Positions 1,608 through 61,847 of a stretch of 64,000 bases of DNA are shown here, piece by piece. The notes under the pieces were generated by a model, which saw nothing but the letters and a program-made list of their open reading frames with translations, was not told the DNA's origin and made no database searches. The position numbers were made by a program, and so were the translations under genes. How positions within the stretch are numbered: the stretch's first letter is position 1; each line of letters starts with the position of its first letter. This stretch comes from Antedon mediterranea (lineage: Eukaryota; Animalia; Echinodermata): the NCBI RefSeq assembly GCF_964355755.1, contig NC_092670.1, forward strand, positions 29,934,388 through 29,998,387. Direction: 5' to 3'.

Positions 1608-4600
1608 ATTCCTCTATGGTAATAACATTTCCAACATTACGTATAAAACATTGGAAACCAAAGACACAACATTGGAATACATGTGAGATTTTTGTTCTTT
1701 GATACTTTTTTAGCCTAGATAATATAAATACTCGATGATACGTACTTTCAATTTCATTTTAATCACAGTTTAATGATTCAAAGCAAGAAATTAAAATAAC
1801 GAATACAGTTAATATTTTCCCCCAGATATCTATTTGACAATCCAATAAAAGAGATCGGAGAAAATGCTCTATCACATATGAAAGAAAATGGAACAGTGTA
1901 TGTACATTCGTATATTATTATATTTAGTTTTTAAGTCATAACAATTTACAAAAGATAATGATAATTTCAATATCACCACAATTGAACCGTCATCATCATC
2001 CTCGGTATATTTATCAATTTTATTATCATCAATGATCGTCGCAACATTCTCATCAGCATCACCATTACACCATTACAATGTGTTAACAACGTGTTAACTA
2101 TGCATTAATCATGTTATTTTTATTTAGATATCTCAACTGTTGTGGACTGAAATCGATTCCTTCAAACATCGGGAAATTTATTAACATGTAAGTACACTTA
2201 AAATAAAAGATTTGATGTATTGATTTTATTTATATTTTTATGTTACCTTTATTTTTTTATATGTACAAGGTAAGGAGAAAGCTACTGATATCTGGCTATA
2301 TAATATAACAAATATCACCTTTTATATAAGATTTGAAAAAAATGATATTCTTCGCTTCGTGAAAAAGGTAGTCTTTCGAGAAAAATATGATTCCCTCGTG
2401 GATGTCAAATCTGATATTTCACCTCTAAGCAGGTAATATCTGTATAGTACTATACACACAGCCGATTCTGCTACTGTCAAGAGGTATCTATCTATAATAT
2501 ATGTACAGGATTTCTGCAAACAGCAACGTATATAACTTACTTTAGTTTTATAGATAGATACCTCTTGACAGTAGCAGAATCGGGTCCTACACAGAGTAGA
2601 TATAATTGAATCAATATAATTGCATGTTGGGTAGAATTACAAACTAATTGTTTTTTCCTAGTGTTTGTGTTACAGAAGGTACAGAAATCGAAATAAATGG
2701 AATTGAAGAGGAGTTGTTTCGTTATATTGGTAGAGAAATTGGTTTGACATGTAATTCCACGACGAGTAAATGCAGTCCGTGTAAGGAAGGGACATACAGT
2801 TTGTATGATAACACCAAATGTGGAAAATGCCCACCAGGTATGGTGCAATATTTATAAAATATAATAATCTCTCTAATTTAGTTATGGCAGTAAATAGTAA
2901 TAATTAATAGTAAAAGTATATAACAATAAAACAACTACAGGTACTTATAAATGAAAAAAAAATTACAGGTGGTTTCTATCAAGATAAACGAGGAGTAAAT
3001 GAAAAGGGTGGTTACAAAGAATCCTGTCAACGATGTCCTGTTGGAAGTTTTTCAAATAATGCAGGAGCTGCGTCTATTGCCGGTTGTCAGACTTGTCCAT
3101 CAGGAACCAAAACCAATAATATTGCCAATCTAAATGCATGTTATTGCCTTGACAATTTCCATCGAACTGATCGATTTGGGCCATGCATGCCCTGCTCGGA
3201 GGGTATTAACTGTGAAGGAGGATATCAAAATCTAACAAAAGGTTACTGGTGGTCGTGGAACTTTAATGGTGACTGTAAAGTAGGCAAAGAACAAAATAAA
3301 AACAATTGTTTATTGGCTTACACAACATTTGTAACTAAATTAAAAAACGACATGTTTCCTATTACCAACCCAAATCAACTGAAAGATGCTGTATACAAAG
3401 GTCCGTTACCAAAAGTATATGCTTGTCCACTAGGCAAAAAAAGTTGTAATATTGGACTAAAATTTAATGACACTTGTGTCGAAGGGTACACTGGTTGGCT
3501 TTGTGCTTCATGTGCAAATGGACATTATGAGCTCTTTAACGAATGTCACAAATGTAAAGGGACTGCTGTAACTGTAATTATATTTGTTGGTGTTGCCTTA
3601 GCAATAATTGGAATGATTTTACTTATATGGAGAATGCAGGAAAGAAATGCGGATCAAAGACAAACCAGCCTAGATTCATTTGTTACCTATTTAAAAATTT
3701 CTATTAATTTTTATCAGGTCTTAGGTATACTATCAGAAGTAACCGAAATTCATTGGCCTAAAAACTTTGAATATGCTGGCAAAATACTTCAATATTTTGA
3801 CGTCATTAGATATATTAGTATGTTAAGTCCAAGATGTTTACACGACTCTTGGAATGCGTATTCCTCCCTTCATATTGCCATGGCTACACCACTAGTCATA
3901 CTGTTAACTATGTCTACCATTTACTTCATTTGCTACATCTGGAATAAGTGTCATGGAGCGATAACTGAGAGTTGCATACGTGATAGATGTATTGTTATAT
4001 CCATGTTGCTCCTTTACCTTACATACGCAAATACATGTGCTGATATATTAGCAGTGGGGCCATGGTCAATTCGTGTATTTAACGTCACAGCAGACGGAAA
4101 GGTCAATAAAACAGTACTAACGTCAGACTACTCAATTGATATGGACCAACATGGTGGATCTACATATCAAACTAACAAAACACTTGTTTACGTTGCTTTA
4201 ATATACATCATTGGTTTTCCATTGGCCATAGTTTTTATGATATACTATAAAAATGTACGTTTTGATCAACATGAAGAAAATCAGAGGAAAGGGTGGATGA
4301 TTGGAGTAAGGTTCTTTTGTGGACAATACAAGCAAACATTTTGGTTTTGGGAATCTTTTGAGCTGTACAACAAGGCTCTGTTGGCACTCATTGCCAACTT
4401 AAAAGATGACGTGTCCTCAAGTTTGTCTTACTCTCTATTTTTTACTGTCATATTTATTGTATTGCATTTGTACCTTCAACCAATGAAAGAGAAGTCAGAG
4501 CAGAGATTCCAATTGTTGACTCTTGTCTTTATCGTTGTCAATCTATCTATTGGGGCGATCGTAAACTTGGATCAGAATTTTAATGAAGATGACGTAATTG

Positions 4601-4928
4601 ATTTACTTCACAAGATAACTCCCGTTATCCTAATTATGCTGAACGTGTCTATCATGCTGGTGGTAACAGGTAAGATATCAATTTTATAATTTTTAAATAC
4701 TGACTGTGTAAATATTGGCATATTAAACCACCATATTTTGTCAACAGCTTTATGAAAAATTGTAGTGTGTAATTAAATTTAAATTAATTTTTCTTATTCT
4801 TAGGTGATTTTTTAAAGAAACTCAATAATAACTGCTGTCGCCGAGAGAGTGGTAGGGGTGTATTGCTTCTTCAAATCGACGATGACCCGGACGAATCACA
4901 GTTTGAAGAAAATAATATTATAATTTAG
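1608..4928 (+). CDS. Paralog A (3' portion): LRR + cysteine-rich + ~9-TM membrane receptor-like protein
   Basis: GT-AG exons: 1608-1682 (FLYGNNISNITYKTLETKDTTLEY), 1826-1897 (YLFDNPIKEIGENALSHM), 2128-2187 (YLNCCGLKSIPSNIG), 2662-2837 (VCV...CSPCKEGTY...CGKCPPG), 2969-4669 (Cys-rich repeats + TM domain; contains ORF 3187-4689), 4804-4928 (acidic tail, TAG). Frame is continuous across junctions; 5' exons lie upstream of the window. Confidence 0.85.
2462..2583. mobile_element. Small MITE-like inverted repeat in an intron of A
   Basis: 36-bp perfect inverted repeat CCGATTCTGCTACTGTCAAGAGGTATCTATCTATAA (2462-2497 vs 2548-2583). Related fragments near 17271-17320 and 39680-39710. Confidence 0.65.
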
Positions 4929-13460: not shown

Positions 13461-15100
13461 TTCCTCCTCTGAGTTTATAGCCTCTCTACTCGAACACAAA
13501 TAAGAACACAAATAAGATAGTTTAACAAGAAAATTCTAATCATGTATTTTACCGCCATTTTTCATTTCTACATTTTAATTAACATCGTATCTAAAATTTT
13601 AAATGAGAAAATATATGGTTAATACTGAATTCTGGCATCTTATTATGTAAATATACCTGTATTTTAACTACTTTAAACACTTACTTTTAATTGTCACAAA
13701 TGTACTTATATGTATATAATATATTCATCAATGAGAATTTAAATAAACGTGAGAAGAACTCACACAAGACAAACAAATAAAATATACATAGGGAGTCTAT
13801 TTATCTGTATGTTTTAGAACCAATTGCTTAGACCTTCAATGGTCTTTAATTACAAAAGGCTTATAGTGTTATTTAGTGACTTAGCCTATGATGGTCCGAC
13901 ACATTTCATAGCCGGAAATCTTGATTTCCTCCTGGTCTATTTGGGTAACATATTAAGTTCAAATATCAGCTAAATTTATTATTAATATTTTTTTAACTAC
14001 TACTTGGGTGGGTGAGGGCATGTGGCGCAGTGTGTTGGACAATGTGTTGGACTACTGATCGTGTGTTTTATTAAAAAGAAATTACTGGGATAATAATGTT
14101 CACCGCTTAGAGGTTTCACAACATTAGGGGCTATATAAATCCAGGATATTATTATTAGGCCTACTTAATGACCTAAAAAGAAATTCAATGTTTTCGTAAA
14201 ACTAAAAATTATTACTTATTATAATTATTAAAAAAAAATATTGAGAACAAACTCACTGCTCGTTTTATCTCTGTACTAAACCATACTATTCTCAAATTAA
14301 AAATGACAAATACAGCCAAACTGATGATGATTTGTTTGTTTGTTTTTTTAGATTTGTATCGCATAATCATATACATGTCATTGAACCTTTCACTTTTGTA
14401 AACTGCACCGAACTGTCAGAGCAGTAGGTTTTCTTAAAAATACAATAACTCATTGACTAATTGATTTAGTAGATCAACATAACTTAATTTGATGAGATAA
14501 ATGTTTAAGATAATATGTTCCCTGATCACTATACATGTTAGAAAGTGCATGCAAAAAATGAGACCACAAATTAAACTTAGCCCCCTCCTATGTCCTAGTC
14601 AGGTTTAAAATTACTATGACTGAATGTAATACTCAACATATATTTCTATCACTTTTTGATTTTCAGGGATATTAGATTTAATAAAGAACACCAAGAGCTT
14701 ATTGAAAATACATTTGCATTTAAATCAAGTTTTTCCGTTAAATTGTAAGTAAAAAGAATAATATGGCATCTCGTTTTTTTGTTAGGTTGTGAGTAACTCT
14801 AAAATATAAGGGTATTATAATGATATAGACCACACATACTTATCTAACAATATCTACATTTTATTCCTTGGAAATTTAAAATATACGGTAATGCCATTGA
14901 TTTAGAATATTTTACATATATAATACATTTTGCAAAACATAATTCTGCATCATTACGCAAATGAAAACAATGATATCTATTTTTATGACCTAATTTATAC
15001 TCATCTTTGAATAGGATTATTGGATATAACGTCCAAGTAATATCAACTGAAACATTTAAAAATGTATCAGATGGAAGCTACCTGTGAGTAAATATTTATG

Positions 15101-15285
15101 CTAGATTGTAGTCGGTAGGTGTGTATGTGTGTTAGATTGTAGTGGATTGGTGTGTATGTGTCGTGCTATAGATTGTATTGGGTTGGTGTGTATGTGTGTA
15201 GTGTTAGATTTTAGTGTGTGGGTTGGTGTGTATGTTTGTCGTGTTAGATTGTAGTGGGTTGGTATGTATGTGTGTCGTGTCGCTA
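15101..15285. repeat. GT-rich minisatellite (~33-bp unit)
   Basis: About 5 degenerate copies of TAGATTGTAGTGGGTTGGTGTGTATGTGTGTCGTG. Confidence 0.8.
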
Positions 15286-17599
15286 TATTAATTAAATTAA
15301 TATTACAGTGAAATCATTGCGTTTGGAATTTTAGATATTTTTTGGAGATATTCATAAACTTCATGTTTAATGTCGTTTTATGATCTAATATTGTATTTAA
15401 TAACAAGTTAAGAAGCATACCATCAAGGGCTTTCCAAGGCGGAAACATAGAAGAGATGTAAGTTTTGTATATATTATCTTTTTCTGTTTTCAATAACGGA
15501 AAATTGCATAACATTTGAATGGATTGAATTAAAAGTGTTACCATCAAATAGCCAAAAATAATTAGTAGAACTTTTATTACTTTTGTACAGTATGTATTTT
15601 GTTTCTGTTTCATTTATTATTTTTGCACGAACGATCACAGATCACTTTGACGTTAACATACTAAGATATATATAAATATAAATTCACCACCAAATTGCCT
15701 ACCAGCAAGGATGCTCTAAAATCTTCCCAGACACTATATATTTGCATTTCGATTTACACTATAAGTATGACTGAATGTCACGATTAATATGTATCATATT
15801 TACTCATCAAGTCAATCGAGTCTAATCTAAGTTGTTAAGCACCTTATATTTAAGACTAGTTTTCATACATTAAAAAAATGGCATTGGCCATTTTGATCAA
15901 CAGCCTATTGCCAGTTCATCAATTATTTGCCGATGCTTTTTTCACTGTATGGGGCGCTTCCAATATACTGCATATATCATAATTATATATCTCAACAATT
16001 CGCTTACACCAGACACTCAATTATACATTTTGCTCTAAAGACAAGTTTCATCAAATGACTTATTGTCCAGAAGTACCATTTTAAACCTTTTAACCGTGAC
16101 CTTTCCCGCCATTTTCCGACAAACGTTTTCATTAGAGAAAACATAAACAGCCTAGAAATTGTAGTGCTACCATGTTGTTTGTTTCAAATGACGTCCCACC
16201 ATTTGATGGGTTAATTAGAAAATGTGTTTTCAGTTTCAAAAATCACGTGAACGCAAGTAGTAATTCTTTGATCATAGCCATTAATCGCCACGTTCTTAAT
16301 GTGTCAGCAATGCATATCCAGTAGAATGCCTTGTTGCATTGACTTCATATTTATATATTTTGTCTGTTATTCTGTACAATCTCAATTCTTTTTTTATCTG
16401 TACATTGAGTTCTTAGATTAAGCTTTTTTTGCTATGGCTATATCGTGGTATCCATGGATTCCGAAATAAAAAGATGAATGCACGAATACCCATCAAAAGC
16501 AAAAAAAAATATTTGCAGGTTAACGACAACGATATCAAGATGAAACTATACTTTTTGTCAAAGCATATGATATCATTGAGTTGTGTAGTAAACCAACGAA
16601 TCAAAATCCATCTGATTGATGAATATAATTATTTCTTTCAGTAATCTTTCAGATAACGATATAACCTTTATACACAAGGACGCATTTATTGCATTGGATA
16701 GTATTTTAGTTCTGTGAGTATCTATCTCTTTTTAAATAACTTTAATTTTTTTGCTTAATATACTTGTTTAAACTAAATATATAATACATTGATAATATAC
16801 TATTTTGTTATTGTTTAGTTAAAAATGGACTCATACTGGTGGTTATGTACCTACTAATTAGGCAACCCAACCTTTACCTACTCCTACACCTTCCACATTG
16901 TAGAGATGTACACATAAATATTAAACTGTTAAACATATTGGAAATACTGTGTTGACATACCACAATAGCATTGTTTATAAACTGCATGCAGGTTCATTTG
17001 CTCAAACTATGTTAATCAGTTTATCTTACGTATCATACAATTATAATTTTTGAAGATTGCTTGGTTATAACAGACTGACTGAAATACCAATCTTATATGG
17101 TATCATGAGATACGATGGTACATTGTGAGTTTAATGTTGTTTTATTAATAGCCTTTATTGTAGAATTGATTTAATAGAAGTACGTGTCATCAAAACAAAA
17201 CATCTAATCATACATATACAGTAATCAAATTCTTGTGTTAGAGTCCTAATATCAGGATAGGCTACATTCACCCGATTCTGTAGCTGTTAGTACACTCAAC
17301 GTGGACAGAATCGGGTGCTACATTTTGTGTTATTTTCTAATAATTATTGTTTAATTGCTAGCTCATGGAAAAAGGTGCAGTTATTCTTATTCCCAAATCT
17401 AAAGAATGTAAATTTATACACAATGACCTCGGACCTATCTCTCTTACTAGCTTGAGTATTCGAATAATTTGTAGTTAAATGGGTGGTTGAATATATTACA
17501 GGTAAGTTAATTTTTCCCGACAATTTAAAGTAGAAACAAATTTTCAACCTCTCATTACCCTATAAACATGATTGACACGGTCCTTTACTTGAATGTGGA

Positions 17600-24200: not shown

Positions 24201-24287
24201 TTTAACAATCTTCGATGTCGGAAACATTCCCAATAATAGAGACTAATTTTGCAATATGTTAGATATTTTATTCAGCTGGTACTTTTT

Positions 24288-42900: not shown

Positions 42901-45900
42901 TACCAAAAATATAAACGTCGTAGTGGTGTATCGTGACTATATTTCAATCGATTATGACAATGACAGTTTTAACAAAGTATTAAATCGCAAATGTTTTACT
43001 GTATTTAGAGGTATATTATTTATAGGCCTATAAAACATGAAAAAAATATTTCGTTACTGAGTGCATAAAGAATATATTTAAAAATTGTTACATCTAATGT
43101 TACATCTCCCTGGTTACATACAAAACACAAATTGGGTTTCTTTAAATGAGTCCAAATCAAAAATTTGGACTCATTTTGTGATAAGTTTTTCCTTCGGAAG
43201 TAATTCCCAGGGTGCTAATTTTAGTTGACTACATAAATCATAGTCCTGCGGTACGTACATTTGAAATCGCCAGTTTTGCTACTCTGAAATTACTATGTAT
43301 TCGAGAACCATCTAGTAAGAATAAATTTAACAAAACAATATAAATTATACAAAATCAAGCAAACAATTTTTTGTTAAAGTTACATATTAATATTATATTG
43401 CTTACAGGGGCTTTCTATATCTTATCTTGTTGCAAATGTTCATTTTCGCGACGTTTCTACCGATGCTGATTGTTTATTGCACGTCCATAAATAAGAGTAT
43501 TATATTTTGATATGAGTTGTAAACTCCCTGATTAGAACATGATTAGGCTAAAATTATAGTAGTAAATACATACAAATGTTATTGTCCGGCTTTATTTCAC
43601 TATAAGGACATACACATTACGTAATAACTCTTGTCGCTCATTGGTTGCTTGTTACGATTGCGCTTACGTCTCTTGCGAAAGTTGACTTCAAGTCAACTTT
43701 CGTAAGAGACGTAAGAAACGTGACGCAAGGGCTTTCATTCAAGCGTAAGATAAAAAATCCCGGTTTCCTGTAAAATCGGAAGAAAACGTCGTAACGCAAC
43801 AATTGTTAGGTCATCGGTTTCCTGTAAAATCGTTTGTCGTTACCATTTTTCTTACGTTGCGTCGATTTTATAAATTTTCGATCGTAATCGGTTTCCTGTA
43901 AAATCCGCATTTCTTACGACAAATCGACGTAGTCGCAACAAAAGTGATGTTCTTACGTCGACAGGAAACCAGCCTTAATTAAGTTGAGTTAGATATTAGT
44001 TATTGACTATCAAAACGATTTGAGGTTTTAACGATTTGCCACAAAAAGGTGTGTTTTCCGATCGTGTTATACACTGTCTAATGGATGCCGATGCTGAAAA
44101 ATATCCGCACACAATAATACGAGGATGCTTCGCATTTACCTATCTTCTTCTACGATAATTGTTTTTAATAGCTGAAAACAGCTCCAGTACAGCATCGTAA
44201 TATTGAAGACAAACCGATTATCTTTAACAAATACTATTTTGATAGATCTATAGAAATTAAACAGGCGATTTCAAATGTACGTACCACAGGACAATAATAC
44301 ATGTCGTTTACAGGAACTATAATATACACGGTGATTTATGTAGTCAACCAAAATTAGCACGCTGGGAATTTCTTCCGAAAGAGAAAGTCACAACATGAGT
44401 CAAATTTAAATAAACCCATGTTTTGTATGTAACATTAGGGTCGAGGGATGGAGAAAAGGATGGATGGAAAGAGGAACACTTTTTAAAATATTCATTATCC
44501 ATTCAGTAATGAAATAATTGTTTTCATGTTTTACAAATAAATACCACTAAACACAGTGTCACAAAATAAGTCCAAATGTTTTAGTCAAATTTAGACAAAT
44601 AGTCGATTGAAATAGTAAAGTACGTACATTGAAAGATACAGCACTACGACGTTTATATTTTTGTAATAACAGTTTTAATTAATACAAACGTTGAGAAGCA
44701 ACTGTCAGTAATAAAGGTGTTTATATAATGTAAAACAGTTTGTAAAAACACCTCTATTCGGGACAAATCGTAAATTCGCTTTAATCGTCAATAAATATTT
44801 GTCTAACTCAACTTAATTAGTAGGCCTAATGGTTTTCAAGTGTTTCTTAGAGCCAATTTATGCTTAAAATTGGTTCCTGCACACCAAAGTTGTTCTGCGT
44901 TAGGGCATGTGATTCTTCGTACTGTAGGCCGATCCTAATTGATTTAGTATCTTAGAGCCAGTTCATACGGTACTTAGTTATTTACACGGGTAAGTTGGTT
45001 CCTACACACCAAAGATTGCGGTAACTGTTCTCAAGAATGCAACTAACTCGGATAAATAACTATAATGATTAAACCGGCCCATATAAGGTTATGTGATACA
45101 GCGGTTTTGGTAAAAGCATTGAGAAAAAGGTTACGCGCGATTTACTGAAATTACCTAATACGAATATAAATAAAACTCAAAATATGTCCTATAAAAAAAA
45201 TTGTAAAAATGAACACAAAGCAAATGAATAGAGTCAAACACGACGTAATCTGTAGCCAAATATAATTGCCATCATGACAATTTTAAAATTAAAAATAAAC
45301 TCTAGACTTGAATATTGTCTGTATTGCATGATATTGGCCTGCCAATCATGTCTCATTATTTAATATGATGGAGTGGTATCTTCATATTTATAAAATTCGC
45401 ATCAAACATGGATTGTTTTCTTACAACAACGTCTTGCAATTACGGAATACTATAATATATATTTGTTGTATACTATTACTGATACATCTACTGGTATTAT
45501 TAGCATTATATATTTTAACTGATCAATTGAAACATTAAGTTGAGGGGGAGGTTGGTGATGTGGGTGGTGGTTGAACTGCAATAATAAAGTTCATTGTACA
45601 GGTATAGACGGCGACTGAAAACGCTAGCTCATTATCTGTTTAAAATACCTAGATCCGACCTCTGCAGTCACAGATTTAAACTAGAGGGTACTCCGAGAGT
45701 ACAAACCTCCGCCTACTGTAAAATTCCCCTACATAAAATTTTCCCGGAAAAAATATATATATTTTTAAAATTTTTTGTTTGTTTAAAGTGTAAATAGGCT
45801 AACTTCACACTACAAAGTTGTGGATGAGAGTTTGGTGTAATGGTTAAGTATCCAGCCTCTCACAGATGAGATCGCTGGTTCAAATTCCATTGAGGGCATT

Positions 45901-48900
45901 TTTTTTTATTATTATTTTTTTATTTCTTTTTTTGTTTTGATTTTTGTGAACATTGATCTTTGACCCTGACCCTTCAAAATTTAACCACAATTATATGATG
46001 AGTCATTGATCACTGTGGCTAAGTTTGGTGAGATTTCAATAAAAACTGTGGTCTCTAGGCAGTAAAATAATTTGTTGTTAGTTGTGACCTTGACTTATGA
46101 CCTTTTCCCCTCAAATTCGAACTCGTCCGAGCTTTTGAGGCATATATCACACACACATACAGGGGTGAAAACATAACCTCCTTGGCGGAGGTAACAATCG
46201 AATTGAATTTCTGTTTTGAGTGTACTTGTCTTTGTGTTATTACGCCTGCGGGAATAGACGCTTGTAGAAGAAAGATTGGAATGTTTCATTCACCGCAAGT
46301 CAATTAATTGTATAAACTTATATATTAAATCTATCAAAATAGTATTTTTGAAAGAAAATCGGCGTGTCTTCAATATTATGATGCTGTACTCGAGCTGTTC
46401 AACCGGTTTTCAGCTATTAAAAACAATTATCGTAGGAGGAGATAGGTAAACGCAAAGCATCCTCGTATTATTGTGTGCTGGTATTTTTCAAGATGGACAT
46501 CCATTAGACCGTGTTTACCACGATCGGAAAACACCCCTATTTGAGGCAAATCGTTGAACCTTAATTCGTTTTAATTGTCAATAACGAATTATCTAACTCA
46601 ATTTAATTAGTAAACAGGTGGTTTAGTACCGAAAGTACAAACCAACTTTATATACCATCGAGTAAACATTTAGAAGTAACGCGCGATTTCCCGAATATTA
46701 CGTACATTTATATATAGATTAATAATTTCAAAATATAAACGTGTGGTGTATCGTTACATGTACTTTAATATTTCAATCGACTATGACAGTGACAGTTTCA
46801 ACAAAGTATTAACTTGCAAATGTTTTACTTTGTTTATGGGTATATTATTTATTAAACATAAAACAAATATTGCGTTACGGATAGAGAATATATTTAAAGT
46901 TGGTTGGTAAACTGATCGGAACGCCTAATCGTAAGAAAACGTCGCAATCGTAAGCGGAACCAGATTTAACGTTGACTTTAATTACCAACCCAGGGTCAAA
47001 TGTCAGATACCATGATTTCTAAGGACAGAAAACTTCTCTCCTAAAGACTTGTTATAAGACTTAGCTGTTGCATATAAGCATCTCGTATGCATGTGTTGTA
47101 TTTGATTATTTAGAGAGATGTCGCTTTATTATAGCCACTAGCGGCTTTATGGCCGGCTATCTTTGATTAATTGTTGTTATATTGTTTTGCAGATTCCTTT
47201 ATGGCAATGAAATAGAAAAAATTACAAATGGGATGTTTAAAACTGAAAATACAACGCTAGAATACATGTAAGATGTGTTACCGTTACAAAATAACTTTCA
47301 ACTTTTAAATAAATCCTAAAAAGAACTTTAAAGAAATAACTAATCTGTAAGTATACATTGACCAAGAAAAATCACCGTTTTGTTCCCTCAGATATCTATT
47401 TGACAATAACTTAAAACAGATCGAAACAAGTTCTCTCTCCTCCCTGGCAGAAAACGGAACAATGTACGGTAACATGGATGGTTTTTTTTGTTCCAATAAA
47501 ACAATTGTAATGGTCAACAATGTGATTAAATATTAAAGTGTAATCTTAATGCTGGTTATCAGTCGACGTAAGATTAAGAGTTTTCAACACGTCTAAAGTT
47601 TTGTACGATTCTTACGTCTCTTTTGCAAAGTTGAAAAAAAATATGACGTCAATGGCGTTTGTCAAGTTCGTGTCGGTCCGCTCGCAAACTGCTGTAGATA
47701 TGCCTCTCCCGAAAGTTAACATTCTGAATTTAAAATTCATGATGCGCGTTTACGACGATTTTAGTGTTGTTACGAAAGTTGAAATTTCATAAAAACATTC
47801 AACTATTCATGACCATTTGAAGCATCGCCTCTGATTGGTGTTTCTTTATCGAGTGGGTTTTCTTATATTTGTATTTCAAATAGTATAAAAGGTACCTATT
47901 GCGTATCCCCATGCACACGACTGTACTAAAGATGCGATGAATGTGATATAATTACAAATATTAAAAAATAATTAAAATGATTGAAGAATACTGTAAATGA
48001 AAATACCAAAGTTTATACTGTTTTAAAAGGAGTTTTTCTAATCAATATCTGCATAATTATCATAGCGGATATTTTGATTTTAGCGAATTAATTTGCATTC
48101 AATTCAACAACTGTAAACTTCAAGAATCAAGGCTCAAATAACATAGCATTGATTAAATAAGCTCAAATGAACTGCATGCTGAAAAATAATGACGTCATAC
48201 ACATTATGCCATATAAATCCATGTATCTCATTGTTTTGTTTTTACGATAGCGCTTCCGTCTCTTACGAAAGTTGACTTCAAGTCAAGAAACGTAAGGAAC
48301 GTGAAGCACGGGCGTTTATTGAAACGTAAGGTCAAAACATCCTGGTTTCATGTAAAATCGGCAAAAATCGTCGAAACACATACAATTTTCTTACATTGCG
48401 TCAAAAACCAACTTTCTTATGATAAGTCGACGTGATCGTACCAAAACTGTAACGTCGACAGGAAATAATGTCTGTGAAGTTGGTTACTAGTTCCTTATTC
48501 AAATTCAATTAAATGGACAGTCACAAATATTAAAAAAAACAGATTTTAATACGTAATAACTGTCCAATTGAGTTGTTATTACATCAACATGTTAACCTAA
48601 TCTACCATTTTCCAACCTAGTTCCGCGAAATGTTTTGCATCTACGCCCTCTTCGGCGAAAAAGTAACTGGCTTTATAACACTTGACCTACTTAATTTTGT
48701 CACTATATTTTTGTATGGATCGATGACACTTGACCTACTTTACGATTTTCAAAATAAAAAAAAACAACTTTAAAAACGTATTGGTTTCAAAATGATTTTC
48801 AAGTTAAAGTAGGCCTACTAGTAAAATTATTGATTTATTGATAATTCTGACGTTTCTTAATACATTCTTGATTTGCAACCCAAGTTCCGCGAACTTTTGT

Positions 48901-51900
48901 GCATCTACGCCCTCTACGGCGAATAAGTAACTGGCTTTTACGAACGATATCCATACCAAAATATTGTGAAAAAATGAAGTAGGTCAAGTGTTATAACGTT
49001 TTTACATTTTTTAGGTTAATGTCATTTAAGCAGTTATAACATAATATATGACGTCACAACGACCTTATGACGTCATAGGTACGTCATATGATAATTAAAT
49101 TATCCTACACATTTATAACTACTCGTAATGCACTTACAGTATGTGGTCTATAAGTAAAACCGTTAAGGAGATAATATACAAGACTTCAAAATGGTAAGTG
49201 GCGGCCATTTAACCCACTTCCCGATGTCCGATGTTGGTAAACATTGGATATGATGTTAATTTGGACAATATCAACGAGGCAAAACAAAAAGAAATTCTGT
49301 TGCAATTTGTTGTAGGTGCAACCATACTTTTACTGGACTATGGTAAAATACTATTTTAACTTGCTATGTTAAAGATATAATTGTCCCCCTAAAAAATAAT
49401 TTTTTGTTGTTGAATATGCCATTTTAATATAACATAATAGTTATTCACTATGACCAAAAACTTGATCCAAAAAAAAAACCATTTTCCACCAAAAAAATGT
49501 AATTTAAAGCAAAATATACCTAAATTGTCTGGAAGACAATGGTTTTTGGTTGAAATTAACCATTTCTTTTGTCTTTTTATAAGTGAAATAATTATTTTTG
49601 ATGATTTTTTTTTATACAGAAGTGAATAACTTTATTAAAACTGTGAAATTTCCTATTCAAAATCTGATTATATTAATCTTTATTTTTTCATGTTTTTTTG
49701 GGGACAATACATCTTTAATTAAAAGTCAAGTTATAAGCCAAAATACGTTTAAAATGATGGCGGCCATCTTGGATTTCAACATGGCGGCTGGAATAAAATA
49801 TTTACAACTTTAATAACAATTATTATTTGGAATCTTCACTATCACAAACATAGGTATAGACACCATTTTTAACTTGCTACGTCACTTAAAAGTAAAGTTA
49901 TAAGCCAAAATAAGTCTGAAATGGCGGCCATTTTGTTTTTCACGTTTTAAGGGTGAAGATCTAAAAATTGAGCAGGGTAAACACATGTTTTTTTACTTTT
50001 AACAAAAAATGTCTACAGCATTTCATTTTTCTCAAATCTGGACGGACTAGTCTATAATTGAATTTGAATAAGGAACTCGGAACTAGTAACCAACTTAACA
50101 TACATCATGAAATCAGCCTTTAATCTTCATTAACAACTATTGTTAGCCTTATTAATGTACGATCATGTTATACAGTGTATAAAATAACGCAAGGACGTAC
50201 TTTAATCAGACTCAGATCAAACGTTTCATATCTTTTGCCGACCAAACCCATAATGTTACAAAATAAGGTGGCATCCAACATGTACGCCAACTAAAAACAC
50301 ATCACATGCATCTACTTTTAAAACGTCGTAGTCAACTGGCAAGCTAATCGTCGCCCAGGGACTGCGGTTTGGGTTCAATTTGGCTCGTGATTAGTTGTGA
50401 TTTAAATGACCTATCAACCAATTTTTAAATCAAGAACTCTTAATTTTCTGTCGTCCGATTTTGATGAAATTAACAACATAACTAATTTTGACTACCAATT
50501 TACAATACCCTCTAACATTCATCATTGTCTTATTTAGATATCTTAACTGTGGTGAACTTCGATCCATTCCTACTAATATTGGCAAACCTATTAACAAGTA
50601 TGTACCATTTATATAGTTACAAACAAAAATAAGTGAACATGTAACTAATTATACAATGTAAATAGACCACCAGCTGTCTTGAATTTGACTGAGATTGTTT
50701 AATATTTGTATATATATATATAATTACTGTTTTTGCCTGATTTGTGTGTATATATATATATATATATATAAATCATACTGTAAATTATAGAAACAGTGCT
50801 CATATTCGGAACATGATCTCATAATCGCGTCGAGCATAACTCATTGGCGAAAGTTCCGTATTTTTTAGTTGTATGAAAAAATGTCTCTGGCGGGATTCGA
50901 ACCTGCAACCTCTCGCTTACAGGGCGAGTTTCATACCCATTAGACCACAGAGCCATGTGTGGTATTATCACAGATTTTCACCCACCAGATACATTCTCTC
51001 ATACAACAAACGCCCTTTACACACAGTGCTACGCAACATCATTGATTTACATATACACAATATTATTTAAAAAAGCCGTTGCGAATTAAAGTTGGAATTT
51101 ATTCTGACTTGTTAAACCTCCACTGATTGTGAGGGCGTTTGTTGTATGAGAGAATGTATCTGGTGGGTGAAAATCTGATTATGTTGATATATGACCAAGA
51201 TTCAATAATCAATATTATTGCTGCAGGGTCCTATTATGGGAACACAACATGAGAGGGGTAAAAAATGTATTTAATAATGTGAAAAGTCACACGGATAAAA
51301 GTTGTTGGACATCGTTCACATACAATGTTAAAATATAAATGACAGCAAATCTATCTTGAAAGTTGGCCAAGACAGAGCCCCGAGTGAACACTCAAAAATA
51401 TTGTTATTCATGTTAAGAGCCAAACGGCTAATTCATTTTGCATTGTAACTGTTACACGTTGGGATGGCATGCACACAAATATTATTGGCTGCAATTTTAT
51501 CCTTTAAGTTGTCCCAGACAGTAGCCCAAAAATGCCCGTTGAGTCCTACAAGATTAATCATATGAAGGGCCACGGCCAATTCCTTTTTGATTGGAACTGT
51601 TACGTCTTGTCATATACGAAAATACTCATGACAGCAACTTTATTTTGTAAGTTGGCCCGGAAAGTAGCCCAAAAATGCCCGTTGGGCCCTACAAGAGAGT
51701 TACACTGATATTCCCCTTGAAATATACGAACGTATTCACGAAAGCACCTTTATCCTGTAAGTTTCCCCAGACACTAGCTCAAAATTTTCGGATAACATTG
51801 CATTGAAACCATTACAGTACACCATTTCTCTCTAGGATTTAATCATTTGAAGAGTTACAGGGATAGGATAAACTTTTATGATCGCAAAACCTACCTCACA

Positions 51901-54900
51901 CCAACCCGCCCGTCTAATTTAAGCTTTTTCAAAATAAAAAAAACAACTTTAAAAACGTATTCAAAATTCAAAATGATTTTCACGTTAGTAGGCCTACTAG
52001 TAAAATTATTGATTTATTGATAATTCCGTTTCAAGTTAACACCTATTTTAAAAATTCTATACAAATACAATATTTGGTACGGTACATTACAACAAAAACT
52101 ACTTTTCCTACCAAAATTTCAATTACAGGTATAGCATAGTATAGGTTAAAACTGTAATATTACTGCTTGGTTTCACAATCTATTATTTGTAATGTGTGTA
52201 GGCTGTTTCTATTCATTTACGTTTTTTTTTTATTGTAAAATCTTTCTGTTATTACATAATTCTGTACTATAAGGCCAAATAATAACATAGGCTACAGTAT
52301 AAATAATTAAGGTTAGGCGAAAACACTTATGTCTTAATTATCACTAATCATCATCGTCCTCATATACACTCTCAGTGTCACCACTCTATGGCTGGCTATC
52401 ATAGTAAATATCGTCTATTTCACTATCTTTTGGAATATCTGTATCTGAATCATACGACTACGTTACTTTATTCGTTTTCGTTCCTTCAAACCAACCAGCC
52501 ACATAATGACCATCGCCATCGTCAAGACATCCAAAATTCAGCGGATGCAGATGTTTTGTTGGTTATGGGGTGTTTGTTAGCCTTCATATCCACCCTAGAT
52601 ATATACTTTTCCCGTAAAATATGTTGATCAAGTGTTTTGCTGCATGATTGTAAAGATGACCAGTTATTTTCTTTCCCTGGACATTCCTCTTCTTACCCTT
52701 TGTCATGTTATTAATTTAATAATGTTACCTTACCTCATTTATGCCATGTAACTGTTTGAACTGGAATATGTATGCAGTGATTTATTTTATCAAATACTTC
52801 ATCACTACCAAGTAATCTTAACGCACAATAAGTTTTGATATTTTTAGTCGCGTGGACGCGACTCTATAGTTCACTATGTCGGTCGGTTGGTCGGTCTGTC
52901 TGTCTGTCTGTCTGTCGGTCTGTCTGTCTGTCTGTCTGTCGGTCCGGTATCACTATGCGTTTTATCGCTTTCTGACCTTATCTTGATATCAGTTTAATCT
53001 AGCTAAGTAATATTTTCACAGAATATTCCTTATGGCCAGGTGGTTATGTTTTCACGGTGCGCAATAAAAAATTACGCGGTCTACGCACGATTTAACGAAA
53101 TCACGTTTGTAATCATATCTTAACAACCATGAATCACAATTAAATAAAATTTGGTACTCATAAATTGCAGGGCATAAATCATCATATGGCAATACAATTA
53201 CGTGCGTAGCGCATGTAACGCATGCGTACGCGCGCTTAAAATTTTCAAAAAATGTTATTTCGCACTCTTTTGGCCCGATTTCTGTTTTCTTGACTTACTT
53301 TTCAACTCGAAATTACGTTATACGAGCACGTCAAAAGTGACAGGCTACGCACGTGTAAATTAAAAAAATATAAATGTTTTTAAACATTTCAACATTTTTA
53401 AACATGTTCAGTAATTTCGGTCAGTATAGTTCACTATGTCGGTCGGTCTGTCTGTCGGTCTGTCGGTCTGTCGGTCTGTCTTTCGGTCTGTCGGTCTGTC
53501 TGTCGGTCCGGTATCACTATGCATTGTGCACGCGACTTAATGGCTGTTGGCCTTGTTTTTCTAAATAGGTGAATAGCATTGACTTTACTTTTCTTTAAAA
53601 AGCAGACTTGAAATCGCATATCGTTGTCGTGGTATATTTGTAACGTTGATGATTAGCTTTCGACTGTTAGCTGAACCGTAATCCATTCCAATATTCGACG
53701 TTTCTGGCATTCTATGGGAGAAACCTGCCGGTACAACAAGTCTGTGTCAGATGAGCACCGTACAACAATTTTCCCTCCAATAACGTCAAAAGTGTGTCTG
53801 CTCCTTCATGGCAGTTTTAAGTTCGGCAGGCTTCAAGTTTAACCACCAAATTACGATTTATTGTGATACATTTACCACCATGTGAAACAAATAGGTCTTG
53901 TCACCTATTATTGGACCATAGTGATCATTCTGGACATCGTTTATAAGAAACTGTGCCAGATCTTCCTTACAATTTTCTCTAATTTTATCTAATAGATCTA
54001 TTACTTTCTGTTGTTGAACTGTTCTATTGTTAATTTAATTTAATTCTTTAATATTTTGATATCTTTGATATATGGTTCTATATATTTTTCCAAGAGCAGG
54101 TGAAGATAATTTTCACTGACGAAACATACCAATCATTGTATCTACAACACTTTTCCCATAGACACATAGACTTCCTTTAAACACAGCCATACTCTGTTTA
54201 AGTGAGACTCAAACCAACGACGGAATGCACTCTCTGAGATGGCTCTTTGTGTGATTAAATCTTGTAGGCATTATTTGGCTATTGTCTAGACCAACTTACA
54301 AGATAATGTTGTTGTCATGAGTATTTTCGTTTTTTCCCCCAAAGCGTAACAGTTTCAATAGAAAGGGAATTGCCAGTGAAGCCATTCGTGTGATTAACGC
54401 TTGTAGGGTCTAACGAGATTTGTTTGGCTACTGTCTGGGACTAATGTCTGGACTTAGGCTACAAGATAAAGTTGCTGTTATGAGTATTTTGTATTTCTCA
54501 AGGCGTAGCAGTTCCGATAAAAAGGAAATTGGCCGTGTGGTTTTCGTGTGATTAAATCACATGTTCGATATTCATTAAGTCAATATGGATCATGATGGTG
54601 ATGTTTATATACCCACAACTAATTTTTTTTTTGCTAGTGTTTGTGTTACAAAAGATTCAGAGATCGATATAAATATTGGAATGTTATTGAAGTTTATCGC
54701 TAGAGGAACTGGATTGTCATGTAATCCCACAACCGAAAAGTGCAGTCCTTGTAAGGAAGGGACATACAAGATATGTAATAAGTATAAGTATAAATGTCAT
54801 ATGTGTCCTCCAGGTAACTTACAAGTGTAAATTATTCTTTGTTTATTTCATTTCTTCAAATATTTAACAATAACGAAAAAATTATAGACGTAAACAAATT

Positions 54901-57521
54901 TGTTTCGTTGTTTATGGCTTTTTTCAAATGAAAATTGGTAAAATTATGAATAATCTTAAAATAAAATGTATTTTATTGTATTTTTTTTATTGTAATTTTT
55001 ATTAATTAACAACATTATATGAGTCTGTCTAAGTTTTCAAATGAGTAATTGTTTTGACAGTATGCCTAATTGATCTTATAATTCTTTTTTATTTTACGGT
55101 TTGAATAATTCCTAGTCTAGTTCCTATCGATCTTCATACAGACATCTGTATCTTAAACTCATATGTTGTTGAATAACTGCATTGTAACCATAGATCGGGA
55201 TCGAATATGAACAAATTAAATAAATTGAAATTTGACCTTCCTATGATTCATTAATTTCTAAACGTATTGTTTATCTAAAGCTTGGTTCTCACTAGGACGC
55301 AACGCAAGGACGTAGACGTAACGTGAGTGAGTTGACCAATCATAAGCGATGGATTATGCGAACTGTCGCTTGTCGTTGGTCAACACGCTTGCATTGCGTT
55401 TACGTCCTTGCGTTGCGTCCTAGTGAGAACCAAGCTTAAGTGAATGATATGATATTTATTATTATATGTATTATAAAAAAATACAATAAATAACATATCA
55501 ATGACAATATGAATTACCTAATTACTTTTGTATGTGTATTGTATCATATTATTTTGAAACTTATTTCGTGGAGTTGTTCGGTTTAATATTGATTTCTTAC
55601 AGGCGGCTTCTATCAAGATCGAAGAGGAGTTATTGAAAGGCATAATTACACAGAAACATGTAAAGCATGTCCTATTGGAAGTTTCTCTAATCATGCAGGA
55701 GCAGCGTCTATTGCGGATTGTCATTCGTGTCCATCTGGAACCAATACCAGTAAAAATGCTAGTCTAAATGCTTGTTACTGTCTCGAAAATTTTCATCGAA
55801 CTGATCGATATGGACCGTGCATAGCTTGCCCAAAGGGTGTTACCTGTAAAGGAGGGTATTTGAATTTAACACAGGGTTACTGGTGGTCTTGGGATTTTTC
55901 CGGTAATTGTGGAGTAGACGATGATTGTTTATCGGCTTACAAAACATTTATAATTAATTTGCAAAACGACAATTTCCCTATTGACGATCCAAATAAACTA
56001 AAAGACCATACATATAAAGGTCCAATACCACAAATACATATGTGTCCACTAGGAAATAAGAGTTGTAACATTGGATTAGAATTAAATGACACTTGTGCCA
56101 AAGGGTACACTGGTTGGCTTTGTGCGGCATGTTCAAAAGGATACTATCAGTTATTTAACGCATGTCATAAATGTCAGGAGCCTGTTGTGACTGCAATCAT
56201 ATTTATTGGTATTATGTTGGTAATAGTTGGAGTCATTTACCTTGTTTGGGGAATTCAACTAAGGAATACAGGTCAGCGACAATCCAAACTTGATTCATTT
56301 GTGGTATATTTGAAAATTGCTATTAATTTCTATCAAGTTTTGGGTATATTATCAGAAGTAACCGAAATTCATTGGCCTAAAAACTTTGAGTTTGCTGGTA
56401 CAATCCTTGAGTATTTTGACGTTATAAAATACATTAGTATGTTAAGCCCGAGATGCTTACTCGGATCTTGGAATGTATATTCTTCACTTCACATGGCTAT
56501 GGCCACACCACTAGTCATAGTGATAGCTATGTTTACCATTTACTGTATGTGTAATATCTGGTACAACTGTCATGGAGTAATGACTAAGCGCAGGATTATT
56601 GACAAATGCATCGTTATATCAATGTTGCTTTTTTACCTTACGTATGCGAATATGTGTGCCCACGTCATGGCGGTGGGGCCATGGTCAATTCGTTCATTTA
56701 TAGTTACAGAAGACGGTATAGTCAGTAAAGCAGTACTAACATCAGACTATTCGATTGATCTGGATGCAAATAATGGATCTACGTATCAAACTAACAAAAT
56801 ACTTGTTTACGTTGCGTTGATATACATCATTGGCTTTCCATTGACAGTAGTTCTTATGCTATACTGGAAACGTTATAATCAGCCTGTAGACAACCACGAT
56901 AAAGGGTGGATGATTGATGTGAATTTTTTTTGTGGACAATACAAGAACAGATATTGGTTTTGGGAATCATTTGAATTGTATAATAAGGCTCTACTGGCAC
57001 TCATTGCAAATCTGAGAGACGACGTGTCCTCAAGCATGTCATACTCTCTGTTTTTTACTGTCATCTTGATTGTATTGCATTTGTACCTTCAACCAATGAA
57101 AGAGAAGTCAGAGCAGAGATTCCAATTATTGACACTTGTTTTTATCGTTGTCAATCTATCCATTGGGGCAATCGTAAATCTAGATCAGAATTTTAATGAA
57201 GATGCCGTCATTGGTTTGCTTCACAAGATCACCCCTGTCATTCTAATTATGTTGAATGTGTCTATCATGCTGGTCGTAATTGGTAAGATATTAATTATAA
57301 AATGCTCAAATACTGACATATGTAAATATAGGCATATCAAACCGCCAGATTCGGTAAACTGCTTTATGAAAAGTAGGCCTACATTTATTTTTTTTCTCAT
57401 TTTAGTTGATTTTTTAAAGAAACTTAAAACAGACTGCTGTCGCCGAGAGAGGGGTGTACTGCTTCTTCGAATTGATGATGACCCGGAGGAATCACATATT
57501 GAGGAAAATAATATTATATAG
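30982..57521 (+). CDS. Paralog C: complete 18-exon LRR + cysteine-rich + ~9-TM receptor-like gene (~1072 aa) with one in-frame TAA
   Basis: Exons 30982-31187 (signal peptide + LRRNT CECTARTVNCRNRGLREWPVGIP), 31805-31876, 32064-32123, 34742-34810, 35350-35421, 35576-35650, 38236-38310, 38632-38700, 38968-39039, 39410-39475, 40027-40161 (TAA at 40121), 40497-40565, 47193-47267, 47392-47463, 50538-50597, 54638-54813, 55603-57282, 57406-57521. All GT-AG; total 3219 nt, divisible by 3. Confidence 0.85.
36358..37018 (+). mobile_element. Diverged HINE-like element (same core, different termini)
   Basis: 5' TAGTCGCGTG, (GGTC/GGTT)n tract, core shared with 62123-62977, 3' CACGCGACT + GCCATGTATATGGC hairpin + CTTGTT. 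Confidence 0.7.
41381..43975. mobile_element. PIF/Harbinger-like non-autonomous DNA transposon
   Basis: 26-bp perfect TIR AGGCTGGTTTCCTGTCGACGTAAGAA (41381-41406 vs 43950-43975) with TAA on both sides. Confidence 0.85.
42107..43315 (+). mobile_element. Non-autonomous Helitron-like element nested in the Harbinger element
   Basis: Begins A|TCTATATATA and ends CTAG|T near 43312-43316. Partial inverted copies at about 44230-44720 and 46316-46718. Confidence 0.55.
45679..46195 (-). mobile_element. Second HINE-type family element containing a tRNA-like segment
   Basis: Minus strand starts GTTACCTCCGCCAAGGAGGTTATGTTTT and ends GGCGGAGGTTTGTACTCTCGGAGTACCCTCTAGTT (subTIR + hairpin). A/B-box-like TGGTGTAATGG...GGTTCAAATTCC at about 45832-45888. 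Confidence 0.7.
47548..50122. mobile_element. Diverged Harbinger-like relative with a TIR element inserted in its right terminus
   Basis: 47548-48465 parallels the ends of 41381-43975. Its right TIR is split (GTCGACAGGAAAT ... CATGAAATCAGCCTTTAA) by 48467-50105, which has ~45-bp imperfect TIRs (AAGTTGGTTACTAGTTCC...TTATTCAAATTCAATTA) and an apparent 8-bp TSD CAGGAAAT/CATGAAAT. Confidence 0.6.
50882..50954 (-). pseudogene. tRNA-Thr(TGT)-like pseudogene / SINE head
   Basis: Minus strand GGCTCTG TG GTCTAATGG...CTCGC CCTGTAA GCGAG AGGTT GCAGG TTCGAAT CCCGC CAGAGAC. A and B boxes and the anticodon stem are intact; acceptor, D and T stems are mismatched. Confidence 0.55.
50971..51177. repeat. 46-bp perfect inverted repeat (MITE-like)
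   Basis: CAGATTTTCACCCACCAGATACATTCTCTCATACAACAAACGCCCT at 50971-51016, inverted at 51132-51177. Confidence 0.8.
52841..53557 (+). mobile_element. HINE/DINE-1-like element with internal deletion
   Basis: 5' TTTTTAGTCGCGTGGACGCGACT hairpin, two (GTCY)n tracts, 3' CACGCGACT subTIR...GGCCTTGTT. Lacks about 110 bp of the core near 53260. Confidence 0.8.
55279..55436. mobile_element. Harbinger/Tourist-like MITE (158 bp)
   Basis: TIR AGCTTGGTTCTCACTAGGACGCAACGCAAGGACGTA, near-palindromic throughout, TAA on both sides. Confidence 0.88.
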
Positions 57522-60087: not shown

Positions 60088-61847
60088 ATGTTGTTTTATA
60101 ATTTCTTGGTAATTTTCCCGTTGTGTTTATTGGTGGTGGATTCAACGATTTATGTTGATAAAGTTGCTTGCAGTACCAATACCAGTGTGAAAGCAGTTTG
60201 TGAATGTACAGCAAGAACAGTGAATTGTGCAAACCTAGGACTTACCGAATGGCCAGTTGGAATTCCAAAAAACACGCTGGTTCTGTAAGTCCTTCTTCTC
60301 CTTTTAATCTCAACAGACCACTAGAAGTGCGAATTCCTTAATAAGAATTTAACTCACCTAATAAATATTATAGTTTTTGGAAATGTTAGAATGTAAAAAT
60401 ATAATCAAATCGAGTATAATACCCCACTTATATATAATCTAGTTGGGGTTATACATTACGCTTTTGGCTTATTTTGTGTTTTAGTTACAAGTTGTTTGTA
60501 ACATTATAATTCATTTATAGCGACATGAGCAATAACAACCTTGAGAAGATTGAAGAAGATGAACTGCTAGAAATACAGGGACTTCTTACAATGTAAGGTT
60601 TTAAACTATGTTAAATAAAATACTGAATGTTGAAATTGAAAATAATTTTGGTTTGGAAAATTTACTATTTTATTTAAAGATCAATAGAATGCCAGTCAAA
60701 TGAAAATAATTCCTTATTAAGCAAATAAAAGTCAAGTATGCCATTCCAATTGGGTTTGGCCACGGGCAGTTTATAGACGTCACACACTCAAACACTCACC
60801 AGCCTCCTATTCTTAAAAAGTTGAACATGAAATATGACCATTTTTATTTTTTATTTTATGTCTTTAGGCAATGTGGCAAAGGATTACCAATAGTAAATGT
60901 ATCACTGTCCTATCAGAGAGGTGGTAACCCCCCTGATACAGGGGCTATTTTGTGAACCAGTTCACCGGTGTATCTCCCTATCCATCTCGAATACTGAGTT
61001 CTTTAAAGTGTACACATGTTATAACTGTGTACACTGGACCTAAGGTTTATAGTCCTTTTCTGAGAAGACTTGTTCCTCCACCAGAGCGAGTCGGCCTCAA
61101 ACCCTTGTCGATGTTGTTGGCTGTTTAGGTACAGTAAACGGCTCCCCTGCCTTAACCGCTCGGCCATTTGACTATGGAAACCATTACATTTTTTTCCATG
61201 TAGTACAGTAAAACCAATATTGAACAACATTAACATATATTTATATTACGGTGTAAAGTAACTAAACATTCAAGGCATTGCTAATAGAATAATAAAAAAT
61301 CAATAAATCAAAAAGTAACAATTAGTAAACAAAGCCTACGATTATTAGGACCGCATTAAGTCTCCATAATATCTGTGCCGGGTTCTATGAAAATGTATGA
61401 TTGCACAGTTATTTTTTATTACACACGAAATGTAACTGTTTACCTTTTCTAAACTGTACTTTTTTTTTATTTGAAAAAAGATGAATAAGATGTTTTTTTT
61501 TTTTAATATTGTTTTTGACCTAAGTTGTAGGTCTGGTCAGTGTAGGTCTTGATTTTGAAAATTAAAATCAAGCGAGCTTTTGCCCTTTTGCTCTACGCGG
61601 GGTTTCCGTCCTCGTTCAGCTCGCATTAGGACACCTGAGTTACCATTTGACAGATGTACAATGTCAGTAGCTGACTGGTGGGATTGGTTATTAGAAGCAA
61701 CAAAGAACCAATATACTGATATAAAATTCTTTTTCCATTTAGAAGTTTAAACAATAATATACTGTATTCTTATTGCTTCAATTTCAGAAACTTTAGTCAC
61801 AATTTACTTACTAGATTACCAGCGTTTCCGCATAAAATCATCAAAAT
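60088..61847 (+). CDS. Paralog D (5' portion): signal peptide + LRRNT + first LRRs
   Basis: Exons 60088 (or 60046)-60284 (MLFYNFLVIFPLCLLVVDS...CECTARTVNCANLGLTEWPVGIP), 60521-60592 (DMSNNNLEKIEEDELLEIQGLLT), 61788-61847 (NFSHNLLTRLPAFP). Exons 2-3 match C in size (72, 60 nt) and phase; the gene presumably continues past the window. Confidence 0.85.
60860..61175 (-). mobile_element. tRNA-derived SINE
   Basis: Minus-strand head TGGCCGAGCGGTTAAGGC with a degenerate B box. Body segment (TTCTTTAAAGT...TTATAGTCCTT.TC.GAGAAGA) is shared with about 58730-58790. Confidence 0.55.
61556..61659 (-). pseudogene. 28S rRNA fragment (~100 bp) in intron 2 of gene D
   Basis: Minus strand GTACATCTGTCAAATGGTAACTCAGGTGTCCTAATGCGAGCT...AAGGGCAAAAGCTCGCTTGATTTTAATTTTCA matches the conserved eukaryotic LSU segment as recalled (CTGTCAAACGGTAACGCAGGTGTCCTAAGGCGAGCTC...GGGCAAAAGCTCGCTTGATCTTGATTTTCAG). 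Confidence 0.85.

Follow-up and report, generated by a model that had tools for sequence, protein, structure and literature searches.

A window of 64,000 nucleotides from the feather star Antedon mediterranea (the whole stretch analysed here; contig NC_092670.1 of assembly GCF_964355755.1, positions 29,934,388 to 29,998,387) contains a tandem array of genes encoding receptor-like proteins, in which a signal peptide, an ectodomain of leucine-rich repeats (LRRs) and a Cys-rich stalk are followed by nine predicted membrane helices. We propose, with confidence evenly divided between this reading and all others, that these paralogs belong to an animal LRR branch of a nine-helix membrane family that likely includes the CRMPs and the Pkd2/FLC proteins, and that they act as surface sensors whose variable LRR face would be linked to calcium entry or exocytosis. 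The elements of this proposal differ in strength, and are taken in turn below.

Four paralogous loci on the same strand were found by self-comparison of the window and by tblastn with five homologs, which gave no strong match on the minus strand of the window. An earlier note, based on the letters alone, had described four same-strand paralogs sharing the whole architecture. The loci are where it placed them, but only gene C is complete inside the window (30982-57521; 19 exons, 1098 codons, GT-AG borders for 18/18 introns), gene A being represented by exons 14-19, gene D by exons 1-3, and gene B by a pseudogene. The features are as follows.

1608..4928, + strand: gene A, exons 14-19, all six open and bordered by AG/GT; they encode the last LRRs, Cys stalk, DUF7630, nine-helix unit and acidic tail
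14352..22310, + strand: gene B, pseudogene, exons 6-18; lost acceptor, frameshift, TAG, deletion
28731..28837, + strand: gene B, probable last exon (acidic tail), 6.4 kb past exon 18
30982..31187, + strand: gene C, exon 1, signal peptide and LRRNT (LRRNT match found on the paralogous exon of gene D)
31805..50597, + strand: gene C, exons 2-16, 16 LRR-like units (joints 39475>40027 and 40161>40497 present in a spliced contig of sequencing run X1)
40121..40123, + strand: gene C, premature TAA at codon 337, TCA (Ser) on other contigs
54638..54813, + strand: gene C, exon 17, beginning of the Cys-rich stalk
55603..57282, + strand: gene C, exon 18, Ephrin_rec_like repeats, DUF7630 neck and nine predicted membrane helices
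56688-56762 and ~56983: within exon 18 of gene C, sites of the Cys-pair loss and of the Asn-Lys of crinoid members
57406..57521, + strand: gene C, exon 19, short acidic tail, predicted cytoplasmic
60088..61847, + strand: gene D, exons 1-3, signal peptide, LRRNT and two LRRs

The remainder of gene D presumably lies beyond the window edge, and the upstream exons of gene A would also fall outside, consistent with the 6.6-kb intron found at the same place in gene C. Exons 2-16 of gene C are 60-78 nt long, all in the same phase, and encode one LRR each, except exon 12, which has 135 nt and two LRR units. The gene C product aligns end to end with the A. mediterranea protein P0002 at 65% identity, and the membrane exon of gene A (2914-4686) is 93% identical to that same protein. 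For the open exon at 55593-57518, identity was 72-74% with A. mediterranea proteins (51% for one of them), 51% with Anneissia japonica, 28% with Apostichopus and 22% with Anaeramoeba. The last intron of gene C (57283-57405) is 123 nt long, in frame and free of stops, so that its retention would add 41 residues to the cytoplasmic tail; the equivalent intron of gene A contains a stop.

The predicted gene C product consists of a signal peptide, LRRNT, about 16 LRRs, an Ephrin_rec_like Cys stalk, the DUF7630 neck, nine predicted helices and a short acidic tail. Most of what the earlier note had read in the letters stood: a signal peptide, LRRNT and about 15 LRRs (we count 16 LRR-like units, 15 with a regular strand pattern), CxxCPxG repeats (four motifs in gene C), and about nine hydrophobic segments ending in a short acidic tail. 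Pfam searches on 22 members returned LRR families, Ephrin_rec_like and DUF7630 (21/22), the latter located directly before the nine-helix unit and behind Ephrin_rec_like (PF24633, 31.4 bits for a cut-off of 27; PF07699, 25.1 bits for a cut-off of 23.1). None of the 23 Pfam families matched by these 22 members was a 7tm, TIR, kinase or PF06011 family, and no 7tm family was among the 25 of 35 Pfam families listed for 43 further relatives. The gene C product has no NPxxY or DPxxY, and its sole DRY lies in the extracellular stalk, with none after helix 3; the noted lack of NPxxY, TIR and kinase stood. With nine helices, no 7tm or TIR family and no NPxxY, the proteins are neither leucine-rich repeat-containing G-protein coupled receptors (LGRs) nor Toll-like receptors (TLRs), as had been proposed. 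They share the extracellular LRRNT and LRR solenoid with both groups, but have no rhodopsin-type seven-helix domain and no TIR, and are not single-pass. LGRs and TLRs are themselves tandemly expanded in echinoderms.

A first structure model, built from 22 sequences, was poor (predicted local distance difference test score, pLDDT, of 52), and the best VIA-align Z of 9.0 obtained with it was disregarded for that reason. A second model, from 66 sequences, reached a pLDDT of 80 and a predicted template-modelling score (pTM) of 0.81, and has nine long helices after the neck, with a beta hairpin between helices 4 and 5. Given the signal peptide and nine passes, the N-terminus is predicted to be outside and the acidic tail of about 35 residues inside. 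Across 149 relatives, conserved polar residues are buried in helices 2, 6, 8 and 9 of the model. A sequence search of the PDB gave three matches, the best at E 0.085, and no PDB entry reached E≤0.001 in Foldseek with either model. G-protein coupled receptors (GPCRs) appeared there with E of at least 0.45, TM-score of at most 0.19 by query and root-mean-square deviation of at least 18.9; a single TRP channel, TRPV3, was listed (E 0.89, TM 0.14). The nine helices of the model differ from the six of canonical TRP channels, but absence from such lists does not exclude a family. VIA-align with the better model gave a best Z of 7.6, none reaching 8, all of them to partial helical bundles. That these searches matched no solved structure is no proof of a new fold.

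In the viral structure library BFVD, only one entry passed E≤0.001 (E 6.9e-5, TM 0.42), a protein of Megaviridae that bears the name 'Transient receptor potential ion channel'; two unnamed Megaviridae proteins came next in the ranking. These three Megaviridae entries (A0A5J6VHI1, A0A5J6VI06 and A0A5J6VLW6) match the predicted membrane fold, and giant viruses may, judging from these models, carry this membrane module. Among viral contigs, 186 pattern matches were obtained, none of them confirmed.

Kinship of the membrane unit with the CRMPs is, on sequence motifs, very probable. We compared the CRMP cores of S2 Table of PMC9815656, whose sequences end at about 400 residues, with the conservation of the 149 relatives, by eye and unscored, and found the family motifs in the same order. 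The neck has LCxxCxxGY...CxxCP; helix 2 has K-I, followed by a Cys in a loop; helix 4 has (L/F)FxY, and a hairpin flanked by Cys comes next; helix 5 has IGxP, and helix 6 opens with W(Y/F)WE...RK, rich in aromatic residues. In the 149 relatives, these motifs rank with the most conserved positions. The earlier note, which had pointed to FLC-like proteins, overlooked the CRMPs, probably the closer characterised relatives. PMC9670195 and PMC9815656 describe CRMPs as proteins with nine helices, an outside N-terminus and a cytosolic tail, required for rhoptry and mucocyst exocytosis and proposed to be contact sensors; in PMC9815656, CRMPs are called apicomplexan-specific, yet Dictyostelium homologs are mentioned.

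As in the CRMPs of Toxoplasma, Plasmodium and Tetrahymena, the window proteins combine a signal peptide, a variable head, a Cys-rich ephrin-receptor-like or EGF-like stalk, nine helices and a cytosolic tail. Because an LRR solenoid replaces the MAR or Kringle head, we regard them as relatives and not as CRMPs proper. They also differ in scale: the feather-star protein has about 1100 residues, and its genes are a tandem multigene family of animals in which some copies are dead, as against two genes, both essential, in Toxoplasma. The same neck and membrane unit are found in protist proteins (Anaeramoeba, Mantamonas and others) in which a variable head is followed by Ephrin_rec_like, DUF7630 and nine helices. 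Their heads are DUF7948, HYR or beta-helix and their stalks longer, unlike those of the animal LRR members, which group apart in the quick tree described below.

Kinship with PF06011, the Pkd2/FLC family, appears probable as well, if a step less firmly so. PF06011 was matched by 7 of the 43 non-crinoid relatives at E≤0.1, with a best score of 28.0 bits for a cut-off of 28.5 (E 1.3e-6, profile positions 268-408, corresponding to the helix 6-9 region). Three of 10 more distant relatives matched at E≤0.01, and one of them, P0201, passed the cut-off with 33.8 bits. These matches lie mainly in the second half of the profile, which corresponds to helices 6-9. Together with the PF06011-type viral structure, they uphold the proposal of an FLC-like membrane module. 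Published work reports nine predicted helices for Pkd2 (10.1101/2022.08.11.503631), calcium passage by Pkd2 in stretched vesicles (PMC9727806), and PF06011 together with effects on calcium homeostasis for FLC proteins (PMC9600462). Fungal FLC and fission-yeast Pkd2 differ from the window proteins, which miss PF06011, gave no match to the ML-like TRP_N domain (PF14558) in the Pfam scans, and have a large LRR/Cys ectodomain. By these profile comparisons the window family is placed as a distant relative of FLC/Pkd2, not a member.

The nine-helix chassis is widespread. A profile made from the neck and membrane unit of six sequences retrieved 14,198 representatives at E≤0.001, 5,232 at 1e-10 and 182 at 1e-30. 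Among the best 150 relatives, 54 have at least 900 residues, and at least four LRR motifs occur in 44 of these 54. The named members with LRRs belong to Antedon, Anneissia, Apostichopus, Holothuria, Acanthaster, Oculina, Acropora and Nematostella, and a Montipora member, outside the domain scan, was also present. Cnidarian relatives add to the LRRs either CUB and immunoglobulin (Ig) domains, or MAM and SRCR. As leads only, the commonest taxa recorded in ESM Atlas clusters were sponges, cnidarians, green algae, haptophytes and ciliates, and some of these clusters had PF06011 on 11-15% of members.

A quick IQ-TREE was made on 50 hand-chosen rows, favouring named and full-length proteins, with a midpoint root and no formal clade test. 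In it, 30 named animal proteins and nine unnamed LRR proteins formed one branch (SH-aLRT 99), with separate expansions for crinoids (100) and sea cucumbers (88). In this tree the LRR-bearing relatives form one animal clade, spanning crinoids, sea cucumbers, a starfish, corals and Nematostella, with lineage-specific expansions. The grouping of Anaeramoeba P0008 with crinoids in an earlier FastTree was treated as a long-branch effect, and the quick IQ-TREE did not reproduce it. The earlier note had spoken of an expanded, undescribed family. Expanded it is, and no paper on it was found, but it is no local family: it is an ancient clade of animals, whose chassis belongs to a very large eukaryotic family and is already known in pieces as CRMPs, Pkd2/FLC and DUF7630. 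Our literature search, which covered mostly titles and abstract openings, without subscription journals or bioRxiv supplements, returned no description of an animal family combining LRRs and nine helices, and no mention of 'DUF7630' in the papers it retrieved.

Anneissia members are labelled 'putative leucine-rich repeat-containing protein DDB_G0281931' at NCBI, which suggests a Dictyostelium LRR relative. Four Holothuria leucospilota proteins (P0028, P0130, P0031 and P0106) are named 'LGR4' or 'IGFBP acid labile subunit' despite their nine-helix unit, likely a misannotation. In Anneissia japonica P0004, the Cys stalk and neck segment occurs twice, letter for letter, probably because of an assembly or annotation duplication.

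Selection was estimated between genes A and C by the Nei-Gojobori method with bootstrap. For helices 6-9, the ratio of nonsynonymous to synonymous divergence (dN/dS) was 0.03 (0.01-0.08; 109 codons), and this region is under very strong purifying selection. Synonymous divergence there (dS 0.73) ruled out gene conversion as the source of identity. Elsewhere in the same pair, dN/dS was higher: helices 1-5 gave 0.31, the portion of exon 18 that encodes stalk 0.41, exon 17 0.56, and three of the LRR exons 0.33; further LRR comparisons yielded 0.43-0.46. At concave-face LRR positions, identity with three close Antedon paralogs was 26/73, 29/73 and 27/63, compared to 99/205, 110/203 and 114/181 at other non-scaffold LRR positions (Fisher p 0.075, 0.041 and 0.007, the three comparisons being non-independent). 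Within the window, the proportions of nonsynonymous (pN) and synonymous (pS) differences at concave codons were 0.376 and 0.377 over 70 pairs, 50 of which involve pseudogene B. The concave-face divergence fits ligand diversification, and is no demonstration of positive selection.

On this haplotype, two of the four genes are disrupted. In gene B, exons 1-5 were not found, the acceptor at 15387-15388 reads AA, a GC donor follows 19704, exon 17 (the Cys exon) is frameshifted, a TAG stands at 21945-21947, and about 1.28 kb of the membrane exon is deleted. Because of the AA acceptor, the frameshift, the TAG and the deletion, it is a pseudogene. Gene C has an in-frame TAA at codon 337 (40121-40123), overlooked in the earlier note. 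Five sequencing runs contain the locus, none of them on record as RNA: X2-X5 come from one sample, and X1 from a separate study, guessed to be RNA although it also contains intronic contigs. At position 40122, X1, X2 and X5 have C (Ser), and X3 and X4 have A (stop). In X2, the depth of the C-bearing contig was 12.5, about half that of a neighbouring collapsed contig (21.6). The stop is likely a heterozygous nonsense mutation, that is, a segregating null allele, although the Ser-reading contigs possibly derive from a near-identical paralog elsewhere. An assembly error is unlikely, since the X3 and X4 contigs carry the stop too. Gene copies arise and die in tandem, in a birth-and-death process similar to that of other recognition repertoires.

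Splicing was seen directly in an X1 contig of 1274 nt, across the GT-AG joints 39475>40027 and 40161>40497. One of its loose ends matches the last letters of exon 10 and the other the first letters of exon 14, and its unplaced parts (857 and 147 nt) are close in length to exons 1-10 (848 nt) and exons 14-15 (147 nt); from these lengths, the contig would cover the flanking LRR exons beyond its two observed joints. The expected transcripts were therefore found in part: the LRR exons have RNA joints, but a joint from LRR to membrane exon was absent among the 15 listed. Indirect support for the fusion comes from RefSeq models of several echinoderms and corals, in which LRRs and membrane unit recur together, and from a relative of 1136 residues, encoded on Logan contigs of 3.7-3.9 kb, in which seven LRR motifs accompany the membrane unit.

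How might such a protein work? A sensor role is likely, and would proceed in three steps. The variable LRR face would bind an outside ligand, probably non-self; the membrane unit would receive strain or a change of conformation through the disulfide-rich stalk and neck; and helices 6-9, nearly invariant and with polar residues buried inside, would deliver the output, either calcium entry on the model of Pkd2 or, on that of CRMPs, coupling to a partner in exocytosis. We favour these two outputs over others because there is no cytoplasmic signalling domain, although by analogy with Pkd2 and CRMPs calcium entry or regulated exocytosis gets no more than equal weight for and against. Non-self recognition is favoured because of the tandem birth and death, the likely null allele and the immune-type head domains, and our confidence that the ligand is non-self or microbial is likewise evenly split. 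The pattern recognition that the earlier note inferred, and the channel or transporter activity that it suggested, may hold in this scheme.

Several points weigh against this proposal. The CRMP comparison was made by eye on sequences cut at about 400 residues, and has no score. CRMPs are not known to act as channels, and an escort role is among the options considered by those who described them. PF06011 was matched by none of the 22 window proteins and other crinoid members, nor by 36 of the 43 wider relatives. Crinoid members lack the Cys pair that the family has around the helix 4-5 hairpin (present in 132/144 and 136/145), and have Asn in place of the conserved Arg of helix 6 (Asn-Lys instead of Arg-Lys); judging from these losses, the function of crinoid members may have drifted. 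The concave-face signal is weak, with pN not above pS, and relaxed constraint on exposed residues would fit it too. Finally, the exon 17-18 joint from LRR to membrane unit is absent among the splice joints listed for this species, which is evidence neither way.

Under the same kinship, the ligands could be self or environmental cues, as in cell-cell or gamete recognition, settlement or feeding, rather than microbes. According to PMC9670195, CRMPs respond to host-cell contact, and those of ciliates to a secretion trigger. Tandem expansion and null alleles are typical of chemosensory families too, and nothing in this analysis ties the genes to immune cells. LRR, SRCR, Ig and CUB heads with fast-changing concave faces, however, typify invertebrate immune repertoires, and we consider this explanation rather unlikely. 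Slightly less likely again is that the nine-helix unit is a dimerising scaffold or escort, anchoring the LRR stalk and trafficking secretory partners, and neither pore nor switch. CRMPA and CRMPB are predicted, in PMC9815656, to pair via their membrane units and to act partly as escorts; the short tail without signalling domain would agree with this, and an interface with another protein could explain why helices 6-9 are so extremely conserved. The conservation of charged and polar residues inside the helices across 149 relatives points the other way, as does the calcium passed by reconstituted Pkd2 (PMC9727806).

A decaying cluster without function, or models falsely fusing LRR genes to a separate membrane gene, would account for pseudogene B, for the stop of gene C on this haplotype and for the exon 17-18 joint absent among those listed; the spliced contig with its Ser codon, the strong purifying selection, and the repeated fusion in RefSeq models and in the Logan-encoded protein make this very improbable. 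A divergent GPCR, LGR-like or adhesion-like with two extra helices, echoes the GenBank name 'Leucine-rich repeat-containing G-protein coupled receptor 4' of two sea-cucumber relatives and the GPCR-like label given by PANTHER to CRMPa (PMC9670195), but is hardly credible given the nine helices, the Pfam scans free of 7tm families, the poor Foldseek values and the missing motifs.

Returning to the sensor proposal, a broader and more tentative version, which we hold to be doubtful, is that these proteins constitute a third class of animal LRR receptors besides TLRs and LRR-GPCRs, older than the split between cnidarians and bilaterians, in which a ligand-gated unit of CRMP/Pkd2 type would trigger calcium entry and granule discharge. 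If true, crinoids, sea cucumbers and cnidarians would each have expanded this class on their own, its members now going by 'LGR4' or 'uncharacterized', and it would correspond in animals to the sensor behind rhoptry and mucocyst discharge. Independently of this version, the array points to a receptor class still to be characterised in echinoderms and cnidarians, among them reef corals and farmed sea cucumbers. Immune surveys that look for domains would overlook it, since TIR, kinase and 7tm domains are all missing and the label is sometimes LGR4. It would connect the CRMP invasion sensors and fungal Pkd2/FLC to animals, through a fold without solved match in these searches, and its invariant helix 6-9 core in a short gene product would be a tractable system for the channel question.

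The window also contains mobile elements and repeats. Between genes A and B, a frameshifted Ty3/Gypsy-type retrotransposon (8230-12850, + strand) has a SCAN-like gag domain, and an integrase placed before reverse transcriptase and RNase H, an order that we take to be that of the Gmr1 lineage; no long terminal repeats were found around it. In the last intron of pseudogene B, a remnant of a long interspersed nuclear element (zf-RVT; 24449-25174, - strand) lies beside a 305-bp tandem repeat (25482-26328). A degenerate reading frame at 830-1607 (- strand) appears to resemble a GIY-YIG endonuclease of Penelope-like elements. A high-copy non-coding element of about 800 bp, with GACA/GTCT microsatellite tracts near both ends, is present at 17-812, 36360-36960, 52838-53557 and 62120-62977, the copies being 87-94% identical, and a 21-bp minisatellite of about 35 copies occupies 63111-63870.

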